Positions 5,569 through 22,760 of a DNA stretch of 34,283 nucleotides are shown in pieces. Each line of letters starts with the position of its first letter. The stretch's first letter is position 1. Location of the stretch: contig JALVIB010000030.1 in NCBI GenBank assembly GCA_027028725.1, positions 1-34,283 on the forward strand, read 5' to 3'. Below the pieces are notes generated by a model. That model was not told the DNA's origin. It was given only the letters and a program-made list of their open reading frames with translations, and did not search any database. Origin of the DNA: Candidatus Altimarinota bacterium. Lineage in GTDB: Bacteria; Patescibacteriota; Gracilibacteria; UBA4473. The translations under genes and the position numbers were made by a program.

Positions 5569-5643
5569 TGGTGGAGCCAAGGAGAATCGAACTCCTATCT
5601 CTGCATTGTCAAGATGAGTATTTTACCATTAAACTATGACCCC
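5569..5643 (-). tRNA. Atypical tRNA with Ala-type acceptor (G3:U70, A73) and irregular anticodon arm (GAC or TGA register); possibly a pseudo-tRNA
   Basis: GGGGTCATAGTTTAATGGTAAAATACTCATCTTGACAATGCAGAGATAGGAGTTCGATTCTCCTTGGCTCCACCA: good acceptor, D and T arms and encoded CCA, but an imperfect anticodon stem. Confidence 0.75.
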
Positions 5644-20079: not shown

Positions 20080-20108
20080 TTGACTTTCCCGCGAAAAAAA
20101 AAGATAAT
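20080..20108 (+). promoter_or_regulatory. Putative mscS promoter with the core motif in its spacer
   Basis: TTGACT, spacer TTCCCGCGAAAAAAAAA (17 bp), GATAAT. Confidence 0.55.
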
Positions 20109-20136: not shown

Positions 20137-20955
20137 ATGAATATTGATCTAGATTTTGCGAAATATAAAGAACTTTTTATTGAAGGTGCTATAAACTATT
20201 TACCAAAACTTGTCTTGGCTTTTTTGGTGCTATGGCTTGGATTTAAAATCATTAAAATTATCATCAAAGCGCTACATAAATTGATGATTAAACAAAAAAT
20301 TGATGTAGCGGCACGCGGATTTTTGGAAAGTCTGATTTCAATCACTCTCAAAATCATTGTTTTCATTATTTTCGCGGGAATTTTAGGTATGCCGATGACC
20401 TCTTTTGTAGCGATTTTGGGGGCGGCTGGTTTGGCAATTGGTCTGTCTTTGCAAGGAAGTCTCGCGAATTTTGCGGGAGGGGTTTTGATTTTGCTTTTTG
20501 AGCCATTTAAAATCGGGGATTATATCGCAACAAGCTCCCACAGCGGGATAGTGGAGAAAATCACGATTTTTAATACTACTTTAGTCACCCTAGATAATAA
20601 AAATATTATTATCCCCAACGGAGATTTGTCGAATAAGGAAATCACCAATTATACTGCTAAAAAAACGCGACGAATTGATATGGTTTTTGGCGTGAGTTAT
20701 GATGACGATTTGGCAAAAGTTCGCGGGATTTTGGAAAAAATCATCAAAGAAGATAAACGAATCCTCAAAGATCCTGAACCGATGGTTGTGGTGGGGGAAC
20801 TCGCGGATAGTTCAGTTAATTTTTTCGTCCGTCCGTGGTGCAAAACTGATGATTACTGGGATATCAAATTTGATTTTATTGAGAAGGTCAAAAACGAATT
20901 TGATAAAGCTAAAATCACCATTCCGTATCCGCAGATGGATGTGCATATGAAATAA
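20137..20955 (+). CDS. mscS: Small-conductance mechanosensitive channel
   Basis: GAAGLAIGLSLQGSLANFAGG, PFKIGD, IPNG, LADSSVNF, IPYPQ. Confidence 0.95.
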   Translation: MNIDLDFAKYKELFIEGAINYLPKLVLAFLVLWLGFKIIKIIIKALHKLMIKQKIDVAARGFLESLISITLKIIVFIIFAGILGMPMTSFVAILGAAGLAIGLSLQGSLANFAGGVLILLFEPFKIGDYIATSSHSGIVEKITIFNTTLVTLDNKNIIIPNGDLSNKEITNYTAKKTRRIDMVFGVSYDDDLAKVRGILEKIIKEDKRILKDPEPMVVVGELADSSVNFFVRPWCKTDDYWDIKFDFIEKVKNEFDKAKITIPYPQMDVHMK

Positions 20956-20969
20956 AATCCCGCGAAATT

Positions 20970-21752
20970 ATGAAAAAAAATAATGCTTTCACTCTTATTG
21001 AATTACTAGTAGTGATTGTCATTATCGGGATTCTGGCAACGATTTCTGTTGTTGCTTATGGCGGATATCAAGAAAAAGCCAGAATTGCAAAAGCCCAAGC
21101 TTTTGCTAAAGATTCCAATATACAAATGCTGGCTGCTCATACGGAAAAGGAATCTTCCATGTTTGGGCATTGGAATTTTGATGGGAGTGATCCAAATGTC
21201 GCCATTGATTATTCTGGAGAAGGACATAATTTAGTTAAAAACACCACAAATATAACATTAGCAGAAAGAGTCTTAGATACTCCAACAGGGATTGGACTTG
21301 CTACTCGAGCTATTTCTAATTATTATGTTTACCACGATCCAAGTGGTACTACTTTTAATGTAGCAGATGGTGGCGGAGTAACATTAAATGGTTGGTTTAA
21401 GGTAGAAGATTTTTCCTCCGCATCTTCCATTCTATTATTTGCAAACAACAAATATCATCTACGCATATATAATAACGGAGTTATTAAGTTTGGAGTAAAT
21501 ACAGAAAATGGCTTAAAGGATATAACTACCCCGTCTAATTCTTTTAAACATAATAAATGGTACTTTGTTTTGGCTACTTATGATGAAGATAGAGGATTAA
21601 TGAAGATATACCTTGATGGAGAATTAGTAAAAAAAGACACACACTCAGGAAAAATTATAGAATTCCCAGGAACAAACCTTGCCTACACTTACGGAAATAC
21701 GTTGTTATTCGATGACTTTTACAAATGGACAATCCCTTATCGTTCCAAATAA
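20970..21752 (+). CDS. Type IV pilin with C-terminal LamG/concanavalin-like domain
   Basis: A|FTLIELLVVIVIIGILA, KAR.AK; then HWNFD..A.DYSG..H, TL.GWFK, W.FV.ATYD...KIYLDG. Confidence 0.9.
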   Translation: MKKNNAFTLIELLVVIVIIGILATISVVAYGGYQEKARIAKAQAFAKDSNIQMLAAHTEKESSMFGHWNFDGSDPNVAIDYSGEGHNLVKNTTNITLAERVLDTPTGIGLATRAISNYYVYHDPSGTTFNVADGGGVTLNGWFKVEDFSSASSILLFANNKYHLRIYNNGVIKFGVNTENGLKDITTPSNSFKHNKWYFVLATYDEDRGLMKIYLDGELVKKDTHSGKIIEFPGTNLAYTYGNTLLFDDFYKWTIPYRSK

Positions 21753-21767
21753 TTTCCCGCGAAATTT

Positions 21768-22760
21768 TTACAAAAAGATATTAAAAGCGTAACCGATAAT
21801 AATTATTCCCAAAGTTACAATTCCAAAAAATATCGCGAGAAGTTGCCATTTCAGAACTTTTTTGAGAATAAACGCTTCCGGTAAAGAAATCCCAACAATC
21901 GCCATCATCAAAGCCAAAGCCGTCCCCAGCGGAACTCCTTTCGCGACTAATGACTGAATAATCGGAATAACTCCACTGGCGTTGGAATACAGCGGAACGG
22001 CGAGTAAAACCGCGAGCGGAACTCCCCACCAACCGGCTTTTTGTAGATATTTTTCAAAAAATCCCTGCGGGACAAAGCCGTGAATAAATCCTCCCAAAGC
22101 GACTCCGCCCAGCACATACCACATAATTTTTCGCGTGATTTCAAAAGCTTCCGCTGATATTTTTTTCCAGACTTGGCGAAACAAAATTTCGCCACCGCCT
22201 TGCGGGGCGCAGCGGGATTTTGCTTTTTTGTGTTCAGAATGAACTTTCCAGACAAAATCTGCCACATATTTTTCTAAATTTAGTTTTCCCATAATAAATC
22301 CGCCCAACATTCCGATGAAAATTCCCGCGAAAATATACGCCAAAGTTATTTTCAAGCCGAACATTCCGATGAATAAGGCAATCGCGACTTCGTTAATCAG
22401 TGGCGAAGTTATCAAAAACGCAAAAGTCACGCCGAGCGGAATCCGCGCTTCGATAAATCCCATAAATAATGGAATCGACGAACACGAACAAAACGGCGTA
22501 ATCGCCCCAAAAATTGTCGCGAGAAAATAATCTAGTCCGTAAAATTTGTGCTTGGAGAGAAAATCTCGGAGTTTTTCAATCGGCAAATAATACCGCATCA
22601 AACTCATTAAGTGTGTGATGATAATTATCAGGAACAAAATTTTCAGCGAATCGTAGATGAAAAAATTCAACGCCTCAGCGAGATGCGTCCCTTTTTCGAG
22701 AGCAAACAGGTCAAAAGTTAGGTAATTCGCCAGCCATTCAAACGGATAAAAGATATTCAT
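21768..22760 (-). CDS. Permease, DUF318/ArsP-like
   Basis: ITPFCSCSSIP, FLITSPLINEVA, GVPLGTALA.MMA..G.SLPE. Confidence 0.9.
   Translation of the reverse strand: MNIFYPFEWLANYLTFDLFALEKGTHLAEALNFFIYDSLKILFLIIIITHLMSLMRYYLPIEKLRDFLSKHKFYGLDYFLATIFGAITPFCSCSSIPLFMGFIEARIPLGVTFAFLITSPLINEVAIALFIGMFGLKITLAYIFAGIFIGMLGGFIMGKLNLEKYVADFVWKVHSEHKKAKSRCAPQGGGEILFRQVWKKISAEAFEITRKIMWYVLGGVALGGFIHGFVPQGFFEKYLQKAGWWGVPLAVLLAVPLYSNASGVIPIIQSLVAKGVPLGTALALMMAIVGISLPEAFILKKVLKWQLLAIFFGIVTLGIIIIGYAFNIFL
22193..22213. mobile_element. 21-bp small dispersed element inserted in the core motif
   Basis: AAAATTTCGC[CACCGCCTTGCGGGGCGCAGC]GGGATTTT, giving KSR[CAPQGGG]E. Confidence 0.85.

Follow-up and report, generated by a model that had tools for sequence, protein, structure and literature searches.

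A type IV pilin-like gene with a C-terminal LamG domain lies, in a Candidatus Altimarinota genome, between two direct copies of an 18-nt word, and in a congener the corresponding junction holds a single word and no gene. The crossover between the two forms falls within the word in their alignment, and word-bounded insertions and deletions (indels) occur in excess of expectation across the genome. The difference in gene content was probably produced by short-homology recombination at word copies, not by a dedicated pilin-cassette system, a reading to which we assign a probability of about 0.55. The locus is part of a 34,283-nucleotide (nt) stretch of contig JALVIB010000030.1, hereafter the window; the genome that contains it is denoted G000, and its two congeners G001 and G002.

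A pilin-LamG gene between two word-only gaps

The initial annotation described an mscS stop codon, a gap made up of the word only, an open reading frame (ORF) from ATG to TAA, a second word-only gap and a permease stop codon, with the two word copies in direct orientation, and this layout is borne out (Table 1). The cores of the flanking copies are at 20958-20966 and 21755-21763, both on the + strand. Pfam assigns MS_channel domains (E 6e-22) to the mscS product and ArsP_1 (E 1e-61) to the permease. Two further word copies lie antisense within mscS (20371-20379 and 20720-20728), and the copy in the permease gene that is split in G000 is intact at the equivalent place in G002. The spacer of the promoter-like site upstream of mscS also holds a word copy (core 20087-20095). 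This site is the likely promoter for both mscS and the pilin gene, in a region where the number of promoter-like sites is not above that of shuffles. The pilin gene leaves no room for a promoter or Shine-Dalgarno sequence of its own and is probably co-transcribed with mscS. No terminator-like site was found between the pilin gene and the permease, and the only Rfam matches in the window are two tRNAs.

Table 1 Features of the mscS-pilin-permease locus, in window coordinates
Feature	Position	Strand	Basis or remark
Promoter-like site TTGACT-17-GATAAT	20080..20108	+	Upstream of mscS; 10/12 consensus positions
mscS mechanosensitive channel gene, 272 aa	20137..20955	+	Stop TAA 20953-20955; ORF list, Pfam
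Word copy 1, AAAATCCCGCGAAATT	20954..20969	+	First two bases are part of the mscS stop codon
Gap mscS-pilin, AATCCCGCGAAATT, 14 nt	20956-20969		Whole gap is word only
Type IV pilin-like gene with C-terminal LamG/concanavalin-like domain, 260 aa, 783 bp	20970..21752	+	ATG at 20970, stop TAA, intact
Word copy 2, TTTCCCGCGAAATTTT	21753..21768	+	Same orientation as copy 1
Gap pilin-permease, TTTCCCGCGAAATTT, 15 nt	21753-21767		Word only, between convergent stop codons
ArsP_1-family permease gene, 330 aa	21768..22760	-	Convergent with pilin gene; reverse-strand stop TTA at 21768
Word copy in permease gene, core split by 21-nt in-frame insert	22187..22217	-	Sequence comparison with G002

The pilin product carries an N_methyl domain (PF07963, residues 1-26, E 8e-9), which identifies a type IV prepilin, and a Laminin_G_3 domain (PF13385, residues 133-237, E 8e-16, 58.9 bits against a cut-off of 27.6), which identifies the LamG part. 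The FTLIELL motif is invariant across an alignment of six pilin homologs; its Phe is preceded by Ala in the focal pilin, as in three of the five other aligned sequences. The G000 genome encodes 17 more pilin-like N-termini, and the pilin-LamG family makes up 5 of its ~1012 genes, all 5 with the word right behind the stop codon. The paralogs are 29-36% identical to the focal pilin in the alignment and 33-42% in a genome search.

Pilin genes are poor in the word (7 copies in 12 kb, P = 0.0015), and the focal gene contains no core copy, as had been stated at the outset. The AT-richness noted with it is real, at 34.5% GC versus 36.8% for mscS and 41.5% for the permease, but mild in degree: among 665 genes of 450 bp or more the gene ranks at the 18th percentile, and its GC3 of 24.9% at the 16th. 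Among 5.8 billion proteins, the best homolog other than the protein itself has 38% identity, and no ortholog was found in G001 or G002. The gene would be, as part of the preferred reading, an accessory, lineage-specific pilus or adhesin gene.

A single-word empty site in a congener

In G002, mscS and the permease gene (86% and 85% amino-acid identity to G000, respectively) are adjacent, convergent and intact, and the 14-nt gap between them is one single word. A metagenome scan with mscS returned 66 loci, of which only contig L083 (92% identity) extends to the junction; its junction has the G002 form, and it is probably from the same species and hence not independent. Relatives had been expected to show either an empty site with one word or a different cargo gene: the former is what both records hold, and no relative examined carries other cargo between mscS and the permease. 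The refuting outcome named in advance, a gene kept in synteny whose breakpoints bear no relation to the word, did not occur.

Two blastn matches between G002 and G000 share 30 nt, which lie on the single word. In G000, the two copies make up a repeat that matches at 18 of 20 positions (AAATAA, AA or TT, then TCCCGCGAAATT), and in the alignment the G002 copy is a hybrid, with the left flank of copy 1 and the right flank of copy 2. By this alignment, the crossover is located inside TCCCGCGAAATT. The locus is rearranged in G001 and gives the indel no polarity, as dnaG follows mscS there (79% identity for the mscS ortholog) and a permease match is absent at E <= 1e-20. The three genomes are about equally distant from one another, and three-species signals conflict.

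Abundance, placement and conservation of the word

The consensus of the word, AAAATCCCGCGAAATTTT, is 18 nt long, asymmetric and only quasi-palindromic, with AT-rich arms in its logo. The 1.04-Mb G000 genome holds 2199 copies (2.1 per kb), 1117 on the + strand and 1082 on the - strand, and the window holds 67 core copies against 0.21 expected and a maximum of 2 among 100 shuffles. Copies are found in all six frames. Counted as a 10-mer, the word occurs 1925 times in G000, 1408 times in G002, 610 times in G001, where TCCGCGAAATTTT-like forms are a spelling variant, and 0-16 times in each of 38 other genomes. Within aligned blocks, 401 of 655 word copies (61%) are identical in G002, versus 437 of 3507 control 9-mers (12.5%). 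Judged by such comparisons, the word is a maintained DNA-level element that is confined to the genus.

With 1012 genes called as greedy ORFs, the core is present in 484 of 918 intergenic gaps, 36 of the 65 gaps of 10-20 nt consist of the word only, and 216 of 719 genes (30%) have a core no more than 6 nt past the stop codon. The word lies on both sides of 238 of 826 interior genes (29%) and does so in direct orientation at 117 (14%), 38 of which have no internal copy; a lack of internal copies is seen in 55 of 182 genes of 600-1000 bp (30%). Both gaps are tight and word-only at 3 of 826 genes, versus 1.27 expected (Poisson P = 0.14). A second tight cassette, G000:C52:13027-14229 (DUF2207_C), belongs to a block that as a whole has no ortholog in 687 kb of G002. 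The word is in sense in 15 of 18 tight co-directional gaps, and in 13 of 13 where the start codon is ATG, and this sense rule fixes the orientation of copy 1. Tight convergent gaps divide 11 versus 7 by word orientation, and the direct orientation of the two focal copies is close to a coin toss. Given these genome-wide habits, the flanking of the pilin gene is far less beyond chance than the word itself; being word-flanked, taken alone, is weak evidence for a cassette.

Absence of the word was considered as a marker of foreign origin and is not diagnostic: genes without a G002 ortholog still carry 1.33 words per kb, versus 1.64 in genes with one. Adjacent copies 300-2000 nt apart form 525 direct and 516 inverted pairs. 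Frequent deletion between direct repeats would predict depleted direct pairs, and the lack of depletion at these distances counts against it. Symmetric cutting and ligation in the CGCG core is likewise unsupported, as hybrid palindromic words are rare and unbalanced (TCCCGCGGGA, 3 copies; TTTCGCGAAA, 85 copies).

Word-bounded indels across the genome

Chaining of blastn matches, a procedure that favours junctions whose conserved word extends the match, was used to list nucleotide-level differences of G002 from G000 in which a segment of 150 bp or more in one genome faces no more than 25 bp in the other. It gave 23 such indels, 9 of which have an exact core at the empty junction. Direct word copies lie within 25 nt of both insert ends in 6 of the 23, against a null of 0.6-2.75% (binomial P = 3e-5), an excess of about ten-fold over a null in which both ends are placed in intergenic gaps. 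Single-gene indels with a cargo of 100 aa or more provided 11 usable cases; the word stands on each side of 8 of them, and at 6 the copies are direct, compared with backgrounds of 29% and 14% (P = 0.003 and 0.002). Direct and inverted copies at indel ends number 6 versus 3 in the 23-indel set and 6 versus 2 in the single-gene set, which is not significant. Junctions inspected by eye agree with the word-bounded pattern.

Pilin-LamG genes account for three of the 11 single-gene indels, and paralogs at G000:C60:3322-4116 and C94:8491-9354 show the same word-bounded presence/absence pattern as the focal gene, the C60 site being empty in G001 too. Nothing about the pattern is specific to pilins or hints at a dedicated cassette mechanism. 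Inserts other than pilin genes are word-bounded too, and the single-word empty form extends to non-genic inserts of 185-511 bp. Within valyl-tRNA synthetase, a DUF559 domain (E 1e-25) is inserted in frame between two word copies, and the synthetases of G001 and G002 have a single in-frame word at its position. An identical 21-nt insert splits 35 word copies in G000 versus 2 in G002. Insertions do occur at word sites. There are also counter-examples: at the tight cassette G000:C87:5871-6392 the G002 empty site has no word and the flanking genes overlap by 4 nt, at C21:7393-7740 the word is absent from the empty site, and at C6:6720-7253 the copies are inverted.

Possible routes to the two forms of the locus

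In the preferred reading, the pilin gene is enclosed by two direct copies of an 18-nt 'gene-end' word that is conserved and specific to the genus, and the presence or absence of the gene would result from in-register recombination between word copies with ~12-20 nt of homology. The word itself would be a passive, very abundant short-homology substrate and an insertion hot spot for any DNA. By one route, a word-ended fragment would have been integrated at the resident word behind mscS in the G000 lineage; by the other, the segment between two direct copies would have been deleted in the G002 lineage. Gain is slightly favoured over deletion: the 38% best homolog, the lack of a G001 or G002 ortholog, the low GC3 and the absence of an internal word all point to it. 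The earlier proposal of recombination between copies holds in so far as the single-word empty site, the crossover in the word and the genome-wide indels bear it out, and falls short in that neither excision joints nor swapped cargo were seen. The word on both ends of an accessory gene may partly reflect gene-end punctuation, because 29% of genes are flanked by it and 30% end with it.

A considerably less probable account makes such punctuation the whole explanation. The word would have a function as a signal at gene ends or between genes, for instance as an uptake tag, protein-binding site or terminator-like element. The two focal copies would then be the signals at the 3′ ends of mscS and of the pilin gene, and the latter would have moved without using the word, by homologous exchange within the neighbouring genes following transformation or by illegitimate recombination that selection then trimmed. 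The cores just past stop codons (216 of 719 genes), the word-only short gaps (36 of 65) and the word behind all five pilin-LamG genes fit a signal of this kind, and the sense bias at tight operon junctions (15 of 18) suggests a strand-specific function; the non-significant difference between direct and inverted copies at indel ends and the wordless empty site of the C87 cassette agree with it too. However, such a signal does not readily account for exactly one in-register word with hybrid flanks being left at the empty site, or for the single-word form at non-genic inserts and within valyl-tRNA synthetase, where a gene-end signal is not needed. The ~ten-fold excess of word-bounded indels, moreover, is measured against a null that already places both ends in intergenic gaps.

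Excision joints, duplicates and recombinases

Four sequencing runs were searched as assembled Logan contigs, from which rare variants are dropped: X1, the probable source, and X5 are from one study, X2 and X4 from a second. The pilin gene is present in all four, at ~95-100% identity. The circular junctions proposed in the initial annotation were not found in these contigs, nor were empty-site joints, and because assembled contigs cannot show rare variants, this absence says nothing against excision. Six candidate joints were rejected, since their sides span only 20-30 nt and match word copies elsewhere. When G000 was compared with itself by blastn, 303 pairs of repeats of 150 bp or more emerged, 47 with the word at both ends and 113 with it at one; no recent gene-size duplicates bounded by the word were among them, and the long pairs are mostly not word-bounded. 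No recombinase was found near the pilin gene; the one PF00589 tyrosine recombinase of the genome is on contig C94, and the lone tyrosine recombinase gene of G002 adjoins a C94-type pilin-LamG gene. Three of four DUF559 copies are bounded by direct word copies and GC-rich hairpin repeats. The genome encodes a ComEC competence channel, and a search for the C5 cytosine methylase family PF00145 found no member in it.

It is unlikely, in our view, that the word is recognised by a DNA exchange system specific to the genus, whether as an integration-anchoring uptake 'self' tag or as a DUF559-type nuclease target, with word-bounded modules being swapped between strains. Similarly unlikely is a genus-specific enzyme that would recognise or cut the word and move word-bounded cassettes, adhesin pilins included, between sites or strains; candidates would be the DUF559 Vsr-like nuclease, the single tyrosine recombinase or uptake-coupled integration. 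The words and hairpins around DUF559 copies, the many G000-lineage insertions exactly at or in the word, ComEC, the G002 recombinase gene beside a pilin-LamG gene and the share of this family among single-gene indels (3 of 11, though 5 of ~1012 genes) are what such an enzyme might leave. Yet no enzyme is tied to the word, the contigs of the four runs hold no excision, empty-site or circle joint, the 303 repeat pairs include no recent word-bounded gene-size duplicate, the paralogs share only 29-36% (alignment) or 33-42% (genome search) identity with the focal pilin, and hybrid palindromes expected from symmetric CGCG cutting are scarce and lopsided (3 versus 85). Wrong joining or loss of the pilin gene at repeated words during metagenome assembly is very improbable: the word does recur ~2000-fold in each genome, and each of the two genomes is a fragmented metagenome bin (94 and ~90 contigs), but normal assembly k-mers are longer than an 18-nt repeat, the filled form recurs on a 2121-nt X1 contig (window 20300-22212, 0 differences), a 300-nt contig from a different study (X4, record 20) bridges the mscS-word-pilin junction, and the empty form is on two separate records, G002:C1 and L083.

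Comparison with known systems

Short-homology recombination at the word resembles the deletion between short direct repeats that arises by slipped mispairing or short-homology recombination (Bzymek and Lovett 2001, as cited in PMC5861425). The pilin locus bears the classical signature of that process: the filled allele has, at both ends of the segment, direct repeats that agree at 18 of 20 nt, and the empty allele has one hybrid copy. Unlike in ordinary deletions of this type, the repeat here is a selected word in thousands of copies, which therefore sets possible indel positions across the whole genome, and some word events are insertions (DUF559 in valyl-tRNA synthetase; the 21-nt split).

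The DUS of Neisseriaceae and the USS of Pasteurellaceae occur about once per kb, on both strands and in all frames, with enrichment at gene ends and in intergenic regions and with lineage-specific variant spellings. The word resembles them: it is hyper-abundant (2.1 per kb), strand-neutral, present in all frames, gene-end enriched, lineage-specific with variant spellings and conserved at the DNA level, in a genome that encodes ComEC. We know of no case in which DUS or USS define indel end points, and a literature search found no paper on uptake sequences in this bacterial group beyond a general review.

HIP1 (GCGATCGC, cyanobacteria), the precedent named in the initial annotation, is a sound one as regards plasmids: recombination between Synechococcus plasmids has been located at HIP1 (Akiyama 1998, as cited in PMC9239245 and PMC5861425). 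HIP1 improves transformation in a homology- and methylation-dependent manner, according to a preprint (bioRxiv 10.1101/2024.09.10.611283). Like the word, HIP1 is hyper-abundant and short, lies within and between genes, and is kept at orthologous positions. Unlike HIP1, a perfect palindrome with cognate orphan methyltransferases, the word is an asymmetric 18-mer with AT-rich arms, found in one genus only and concentrated right past stop codons; symmetric hybrids are rare, and PF00145 was not found.

The pilin gene shares with integron cassettes a single promoterless ORF set tightly between repeated sites, an upstream promoter and presence that varies among relatives. In contrast to integrons, the locus has no attC-like structured site of 57-141 bp, because its gaps measure only 14-15 nt (the 3′ one is, in full, TTTCCCGCGAAATTT), no nearby integron integrase or attI and no cassette array, and the sole PF00589 match lies outside the window, on C94. 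A transposon or insertion sequence, with a transposase and terminal inverted repeats in a duplicated target, is not what is found either: the segment is exactly one pilin ORF, ATG to TAA, and so leaves no room for inverted ends.

Implications for genome flux

Patescibacteria-like bacteria have tiny genomes and need pili for reaching hosts or DNA; to our knowledge, little is known of how they acquire and lose surface genes. At the loci described here, a genus-specific 18-nt word marks the ends of gene-size and smaller indels, that is, points of DNA gain or loss, among them those of three pilus-adhesin genes and of an insert in a tRNA synthetase, an essential enzyme. Genome flux in this uncultured lineage can thereby be approached in a concrete and testable way, be the word an uptake tag, a nuclease target or mere abundant microhomology. 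If the reading as an exchange system were true, an ultrasmall, probably host-attached bacterium could change its attachment repertoire by means of adhesin cassettes.

An intact pilin-LamG gene between two copies of a repeated word

The segment 20940–21790 and its ORFs read as the initial annotation described them: mscS, an 18-nt repeat built around a 9-nt core (hereafter, the word), a pilin-LamG gene, a second word and the stop of a permease gene, with all three gene names backed by Pfam domains. The genome, G000, comprises 1.04 Mb in 94 contigs at 38% GC, and the window is its contig C30. The pilin-like protein is intact and has the FTLIELL helix common to its relatives in an alignment of homologs. 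Because the 14-nt upstream gap leaves no room for a promoter and a promoter-like site precedes mscS, the pilin gene is probably co-transcribed with mscS. The gene had also been described as AT-rich; it is mildly so, with 34.5% GC and 24.9% GC3, but at the 18th and 16th percentiles among 665 genes it is no outlier.

Coordinates of the locus, of other features of the window and of compared segments in the genus
Feature	Genome:contig	Position	Strand	Details
Promoter-like site	G000:C30	20080-20108		before mscS
mscS	G000:C30	20137-20955	+	ends TAA; MS_channel domains (Pfam)
Gap mscS/pilin (copy 1)	G000:C30	between stop and ATG 20970		14 nt, entirely AATCCCGCGAAATT
Pilin-LamG ORF	G000:C30	ATG 20970 to TAA 21752		260 aa; N_methyl (E 8e-9) and Laminin_G_3 (E 8e-16), Pfam; word-insert-word in G000, single word in G002
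Gap pilin/permease (copy 2)	G000:C30	up to TTA at 21768		15 nt, entirely TTTCCCGCGAAATTT
Permease	G000:C30	21768-22760	-	convergent; stop is TTA at 21768; ArsP_1 (E 1e-61), Pfam
Split word inside permease	G000:C30	22187-22217		21-nt in-frame insert in core
Further 21-nt-split words	G000:C30	11072-11102, 12940-12970, 19504-19534
Tight co-directional junctions	G000:C30	20956-20969, 16940-16958
Low-GC block	G000:C30	22779-25365		about 29-33% GC
Non-coding stretch	G000:C30	4831-6339		1.5 kb; tRNA gene 5572-5643
Pilin-LamG paralog	G000:C60	3322-4116		word-insert-word vs single word
Pilin-LamG paralog	G000:C94	8491-9354		word-insert-word vs single word
171-aa ORF	G000:C21	2351-2866		word-insert-word vs single word
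Non-genic insert	G000:C25	2099-2308		word-insert-word vs single word
Non-genic insert	G000:C80	14704-14890		word-insert-word vs single word
Non-genic insert	G000:C20	8821-9011		word-insert-word vs single word
Insert held by G002	G002:C19	5997-6266		word-insert-word vs single word; empty in G000
Tight cassette	G000:C87	5871-6392		G002: two genes overlapping 4 nt, no word
Indel	G000:C21	7393-7740		word absent at empty site
Indel	G000:C6	6720-7253		word copies inverted
C94-type pilin-LamG	G000:C94	5138-10302
C94-type pilin-LamG	G002:C3	10108-14090
C94-type pilin-LamG	G001	loci L155, L156
DUF559 insert in valyl-tRNA synthetase	G000:C5	5203-5715		locus L146 1204-1716; residues 262-372
Variant words	G001	locus L014 4063-4164		TCTCCGCGAAATTTT and TTTCCGCGAAATTTT

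An empty mscS–permease junction with a single word, sought in relatives as the counterpart of a movable pilin gene, is present in the congener G002. On its contig C1, the mscS and permease orthologs (86% and 85% identity; mscS of the second congener, G001, 79%) are convergent and adjacent across a 14-nt gap, AATCCCGCGAAATT, that holds one word; blastn matches from either side of the G000 locus both reach this word, where they overlap by 30 nt. In a three-way alignment of these junctions, the two G000 words make up a repeat with 18 of 20 positions identical, and the G002 word has the left flank of copy 1 and the right flank of copy 2, which places the exchange point inside TCCCGCGAAATT. The empty junction recurs on a metagenome contig (mscS 92% identical), but this contig seems to belong to the species of G002 and is probably not an independent case.

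No close relative of the focal protein was found in a collection of 5.8 billion proteins, in either congener or among the G000 paralogs: the best non-self match among 398 homologs is 38% identical, the best matches in G002 and G001 reach 37% and 34%, and four full-length pilin-LamG paralogs in G000 show 33–42% identity. The 18 pilin-like genes of G000 carry the word at about one-third the density of other genes (7 copies over 12 kb), and 17 of them have no reciprocal best match in G002, suggesting fast evolution or quick turnover. A second, conserved pilin-LamG gene, the C94 type, occurs in all three species; its location with respect to an MFS transporter gene and a single tyrosine recombinase gene differs between them, and in G002 the recombinase gene directly adjoins it. 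Beside the permease, the window has a second variable segment, a low-GC block with a cation-efflux gene, a Bro-N domain gene and a 140-aa ORF that have no ortholog at the same place in G002, where 143-aa (weak ArsP_1 match) and 169-aa ORFs are found instead.

The word is a conserved DNA-level signal of the genus

No 9-mer is commoner in G000 than the core, TCCCGCGAA, which has 2199 copies (1117 on the plus and 1082 on the minus strand; 2.1 per kb); the window alone contains 67 of them where 0.21 would be expected. The consensus of the whole word is AAAATCCCGCGAAATTTT. Copies inside genes fall in all six frames and encode many different peptides, so the word is a DNA-level signal. On a rough greedy ORF calling that gave 1012 genes and 87% coding DNA, core density is 5.76 per kb in non-coding and 1.58 per kb in coding DNA, and the core is present in 484 of 918 gaps. 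Gaps of 10–20 nt are essentially the word alone in 36 of 65 cases, and 216 of 719 genes have a core within 6 nt past the stop. The word is restricted to the genus: a 10-mer from it, counted 1925 times in G000, 1408 in G002 and 610 in G001, appears 0–16 times per genome in 38 further genomes from the same family or class. The word is also conserved: in aligned blocks of 76.8% mean identity, 401 of 655 copies are identical in G002, compared with 437 of 3507 control 9-mers, and its density in the fetched 687 kb of G002 is 1.9 per kb. The variant spellings at one G001 locus, with so few exact 10-mers in that genome, may represent a dialect within the genus. A non-coding stretch of the window holds 131-nt tandem units that each start with the word, and a word spacing of 131 nt occurs three times.

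In abundance, conservation and lineage specificity the word resembles the cyanobacterial iterated palindrome HIP1 or an uptake sequence; a search of the literature, supplementary files aside, turned up no publication on uptake-type words for this group of bacteria. A HIP1-like link to methylation is unsupported, because a profile search for the C5 methylase family gave no match in G000.

Flanking of the pilin gene by the word is not very unusual. Among 826 interior genes of G000, 238 have the word in both gaps and 117 have it on both sides in direct orientation; 38 of the latter also lack an internal copy, as do 30% of genes of 600–1000 bp. Genes in the tightest form, whose two gaps are each no longer than 20 nt and consist of the word only, number 3 of 826 versus 1.27 expected under independence (P = 0.14). 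The word lies in sense at 15 of 18 tight co-directional junctions (P = 0.008; 13 of 13 with ATG starts) and splits 11 to 7 at tight convergent ones, so that direct orientation at the focal locus is close to a coin toss. The word-flanked arrangement alone is weak evidence for a cassette. The sense-strand bias suggests that the word acts, or is constrained, in a strand-specific way at the level of mRNA or template; tight co-directional junctions (10–20 nt) leave no room for a Shine–Dalgarno sequence.

Word-bounded indels between species

Our comparison with G002 covers 687 kb in 58 contigs and yields 512 reciprocal best hits at 77% mean amino-acid identity. Gene order is heavily scrambled, beyond what assembly breaks in 94 contigs alone explain: 396 ortholog pairs are adjacent in G002, 184 of which are adjacent in G000 and 172 on different G000 contigs. 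Chained blastn matches define 23 nucleotide-level indels (150 bp or more in one genome facing 25 bp or less in the other). In nine, the empty junction contains the exact core. In six, a word lies no more than 25 nt from each insert end with the two copies direct, against a null of 0.6% for random segments and 2.75% for those with both ends in gaps (P = 3e-5); three more have inverted copies. Single-gene indels with a cargo of at least 100 aa number 13, two of which were left out before the count (an N run; a 537-nt 'empty' gap); eight of the 11 counted are flanked on both sides and six in direct orientation, over backgrounds of 29% and 14% (P = 0.003 and 0.002). Junctions inspected by eye show word–insert–word facing a single word at genic and non-genic sites, including one insert held by G002.

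Other results point the other way, among them three loci at which the word is missing or inverted (Table). Direct and inverted copies at indel ends stand at 6:3 and 6:2, which is not significant, and neighbouring word pairs 300–2000 nt apart in G000 are 525 direct and 516 inverted. When G000 was compared with itself, no gene-size duplicates of recent origin with the word at their ends came up. In the assembled contigs of four sequencing runs, the pilin gene is present throughout, a 300-nt contig of a second study spanning mscS, word and pilin start, and no credible empty or circular joint was found; the joints listed are not credible because their sides of 20–30 nt fall on the repeated word. 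Word pairs 100–300 nt apart are mostly inverted (591 versus 235 direct) and those less than 60 nt apart mostly direct (59 versus 11), a pattern that hints at small elements, or modules between genes, that begin and end with the word.

Mechanism and direction of change

The best-supported mechanism is recombination in register between word copies over 12–20 nt of homology, which could either delete a segment or integrate a fragment ending in the word; the focal indel has the classical signature of short direct-repeat indels. Imported DNA of the genus pool, carrying the same word, would be a plausible substrate because ComEC is present in G000. A dedicated system acting on the word is a candidate alternative: three of four DUF559 genes have direct word copies together with hairpin repeats at their borders, and the tyrosine recombinase gene beside the C94-type pilin gene of G002 is the only one, but nothing ties DUF559 or the recombinase to the word. 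Hybrid palindromes are rare and unbalanced (3 versus 85), which makes symmetric cutting within the CGCG core improbable. The focal locus fails the defining features of both integron cassettes and transposons.

At the focal site G001 has two variant words after mscS and then dnaG, and a permease was not found in that genome, so G001 does not polarise the indel; the three species are about equally distant, with nearest pairs that conflict between genes. Neither congener has an insert at the C60 pilin site. The 1097-aa valyl-tRNA synthetase of G000 contains an in-frame DUF559 domain (Vsr-like nuclease; E 1e-25) between word copies, also bounded by GC-rich hairpin repeats, and its G001 and G002 counterparts have one in-frame word at the same place and no insert. 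Since the presence of a nuclease-like domain within this enzyme is surely a derived state, at least one insertion at a word site has taken place. The split word inside the permease is intact at the G002 position, and words split by a near-identical 21-nt insert number 35 in G000 and 2 in the fetched G002. Contig depth in sequencing run X1, the probable source of G000, climbs from 22 to about 1000 over 22146–22216, which fits a multi-copy element. The DUF559 insert and the 35 versus 2 split words mark the G000 lineage as one in which the word readily receives insertions; this, together with the missing ortholog, leads us to favour gain of the pilin gene in G000 over loss at about 60:40, short of proof.

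The proposal that recombination at motif copies could move adhesin pilins is thus supported in part, by the single-word empty site that it predicted; word-bounded indels are better seen as a general feature of the genus than as a device specific to pilins.
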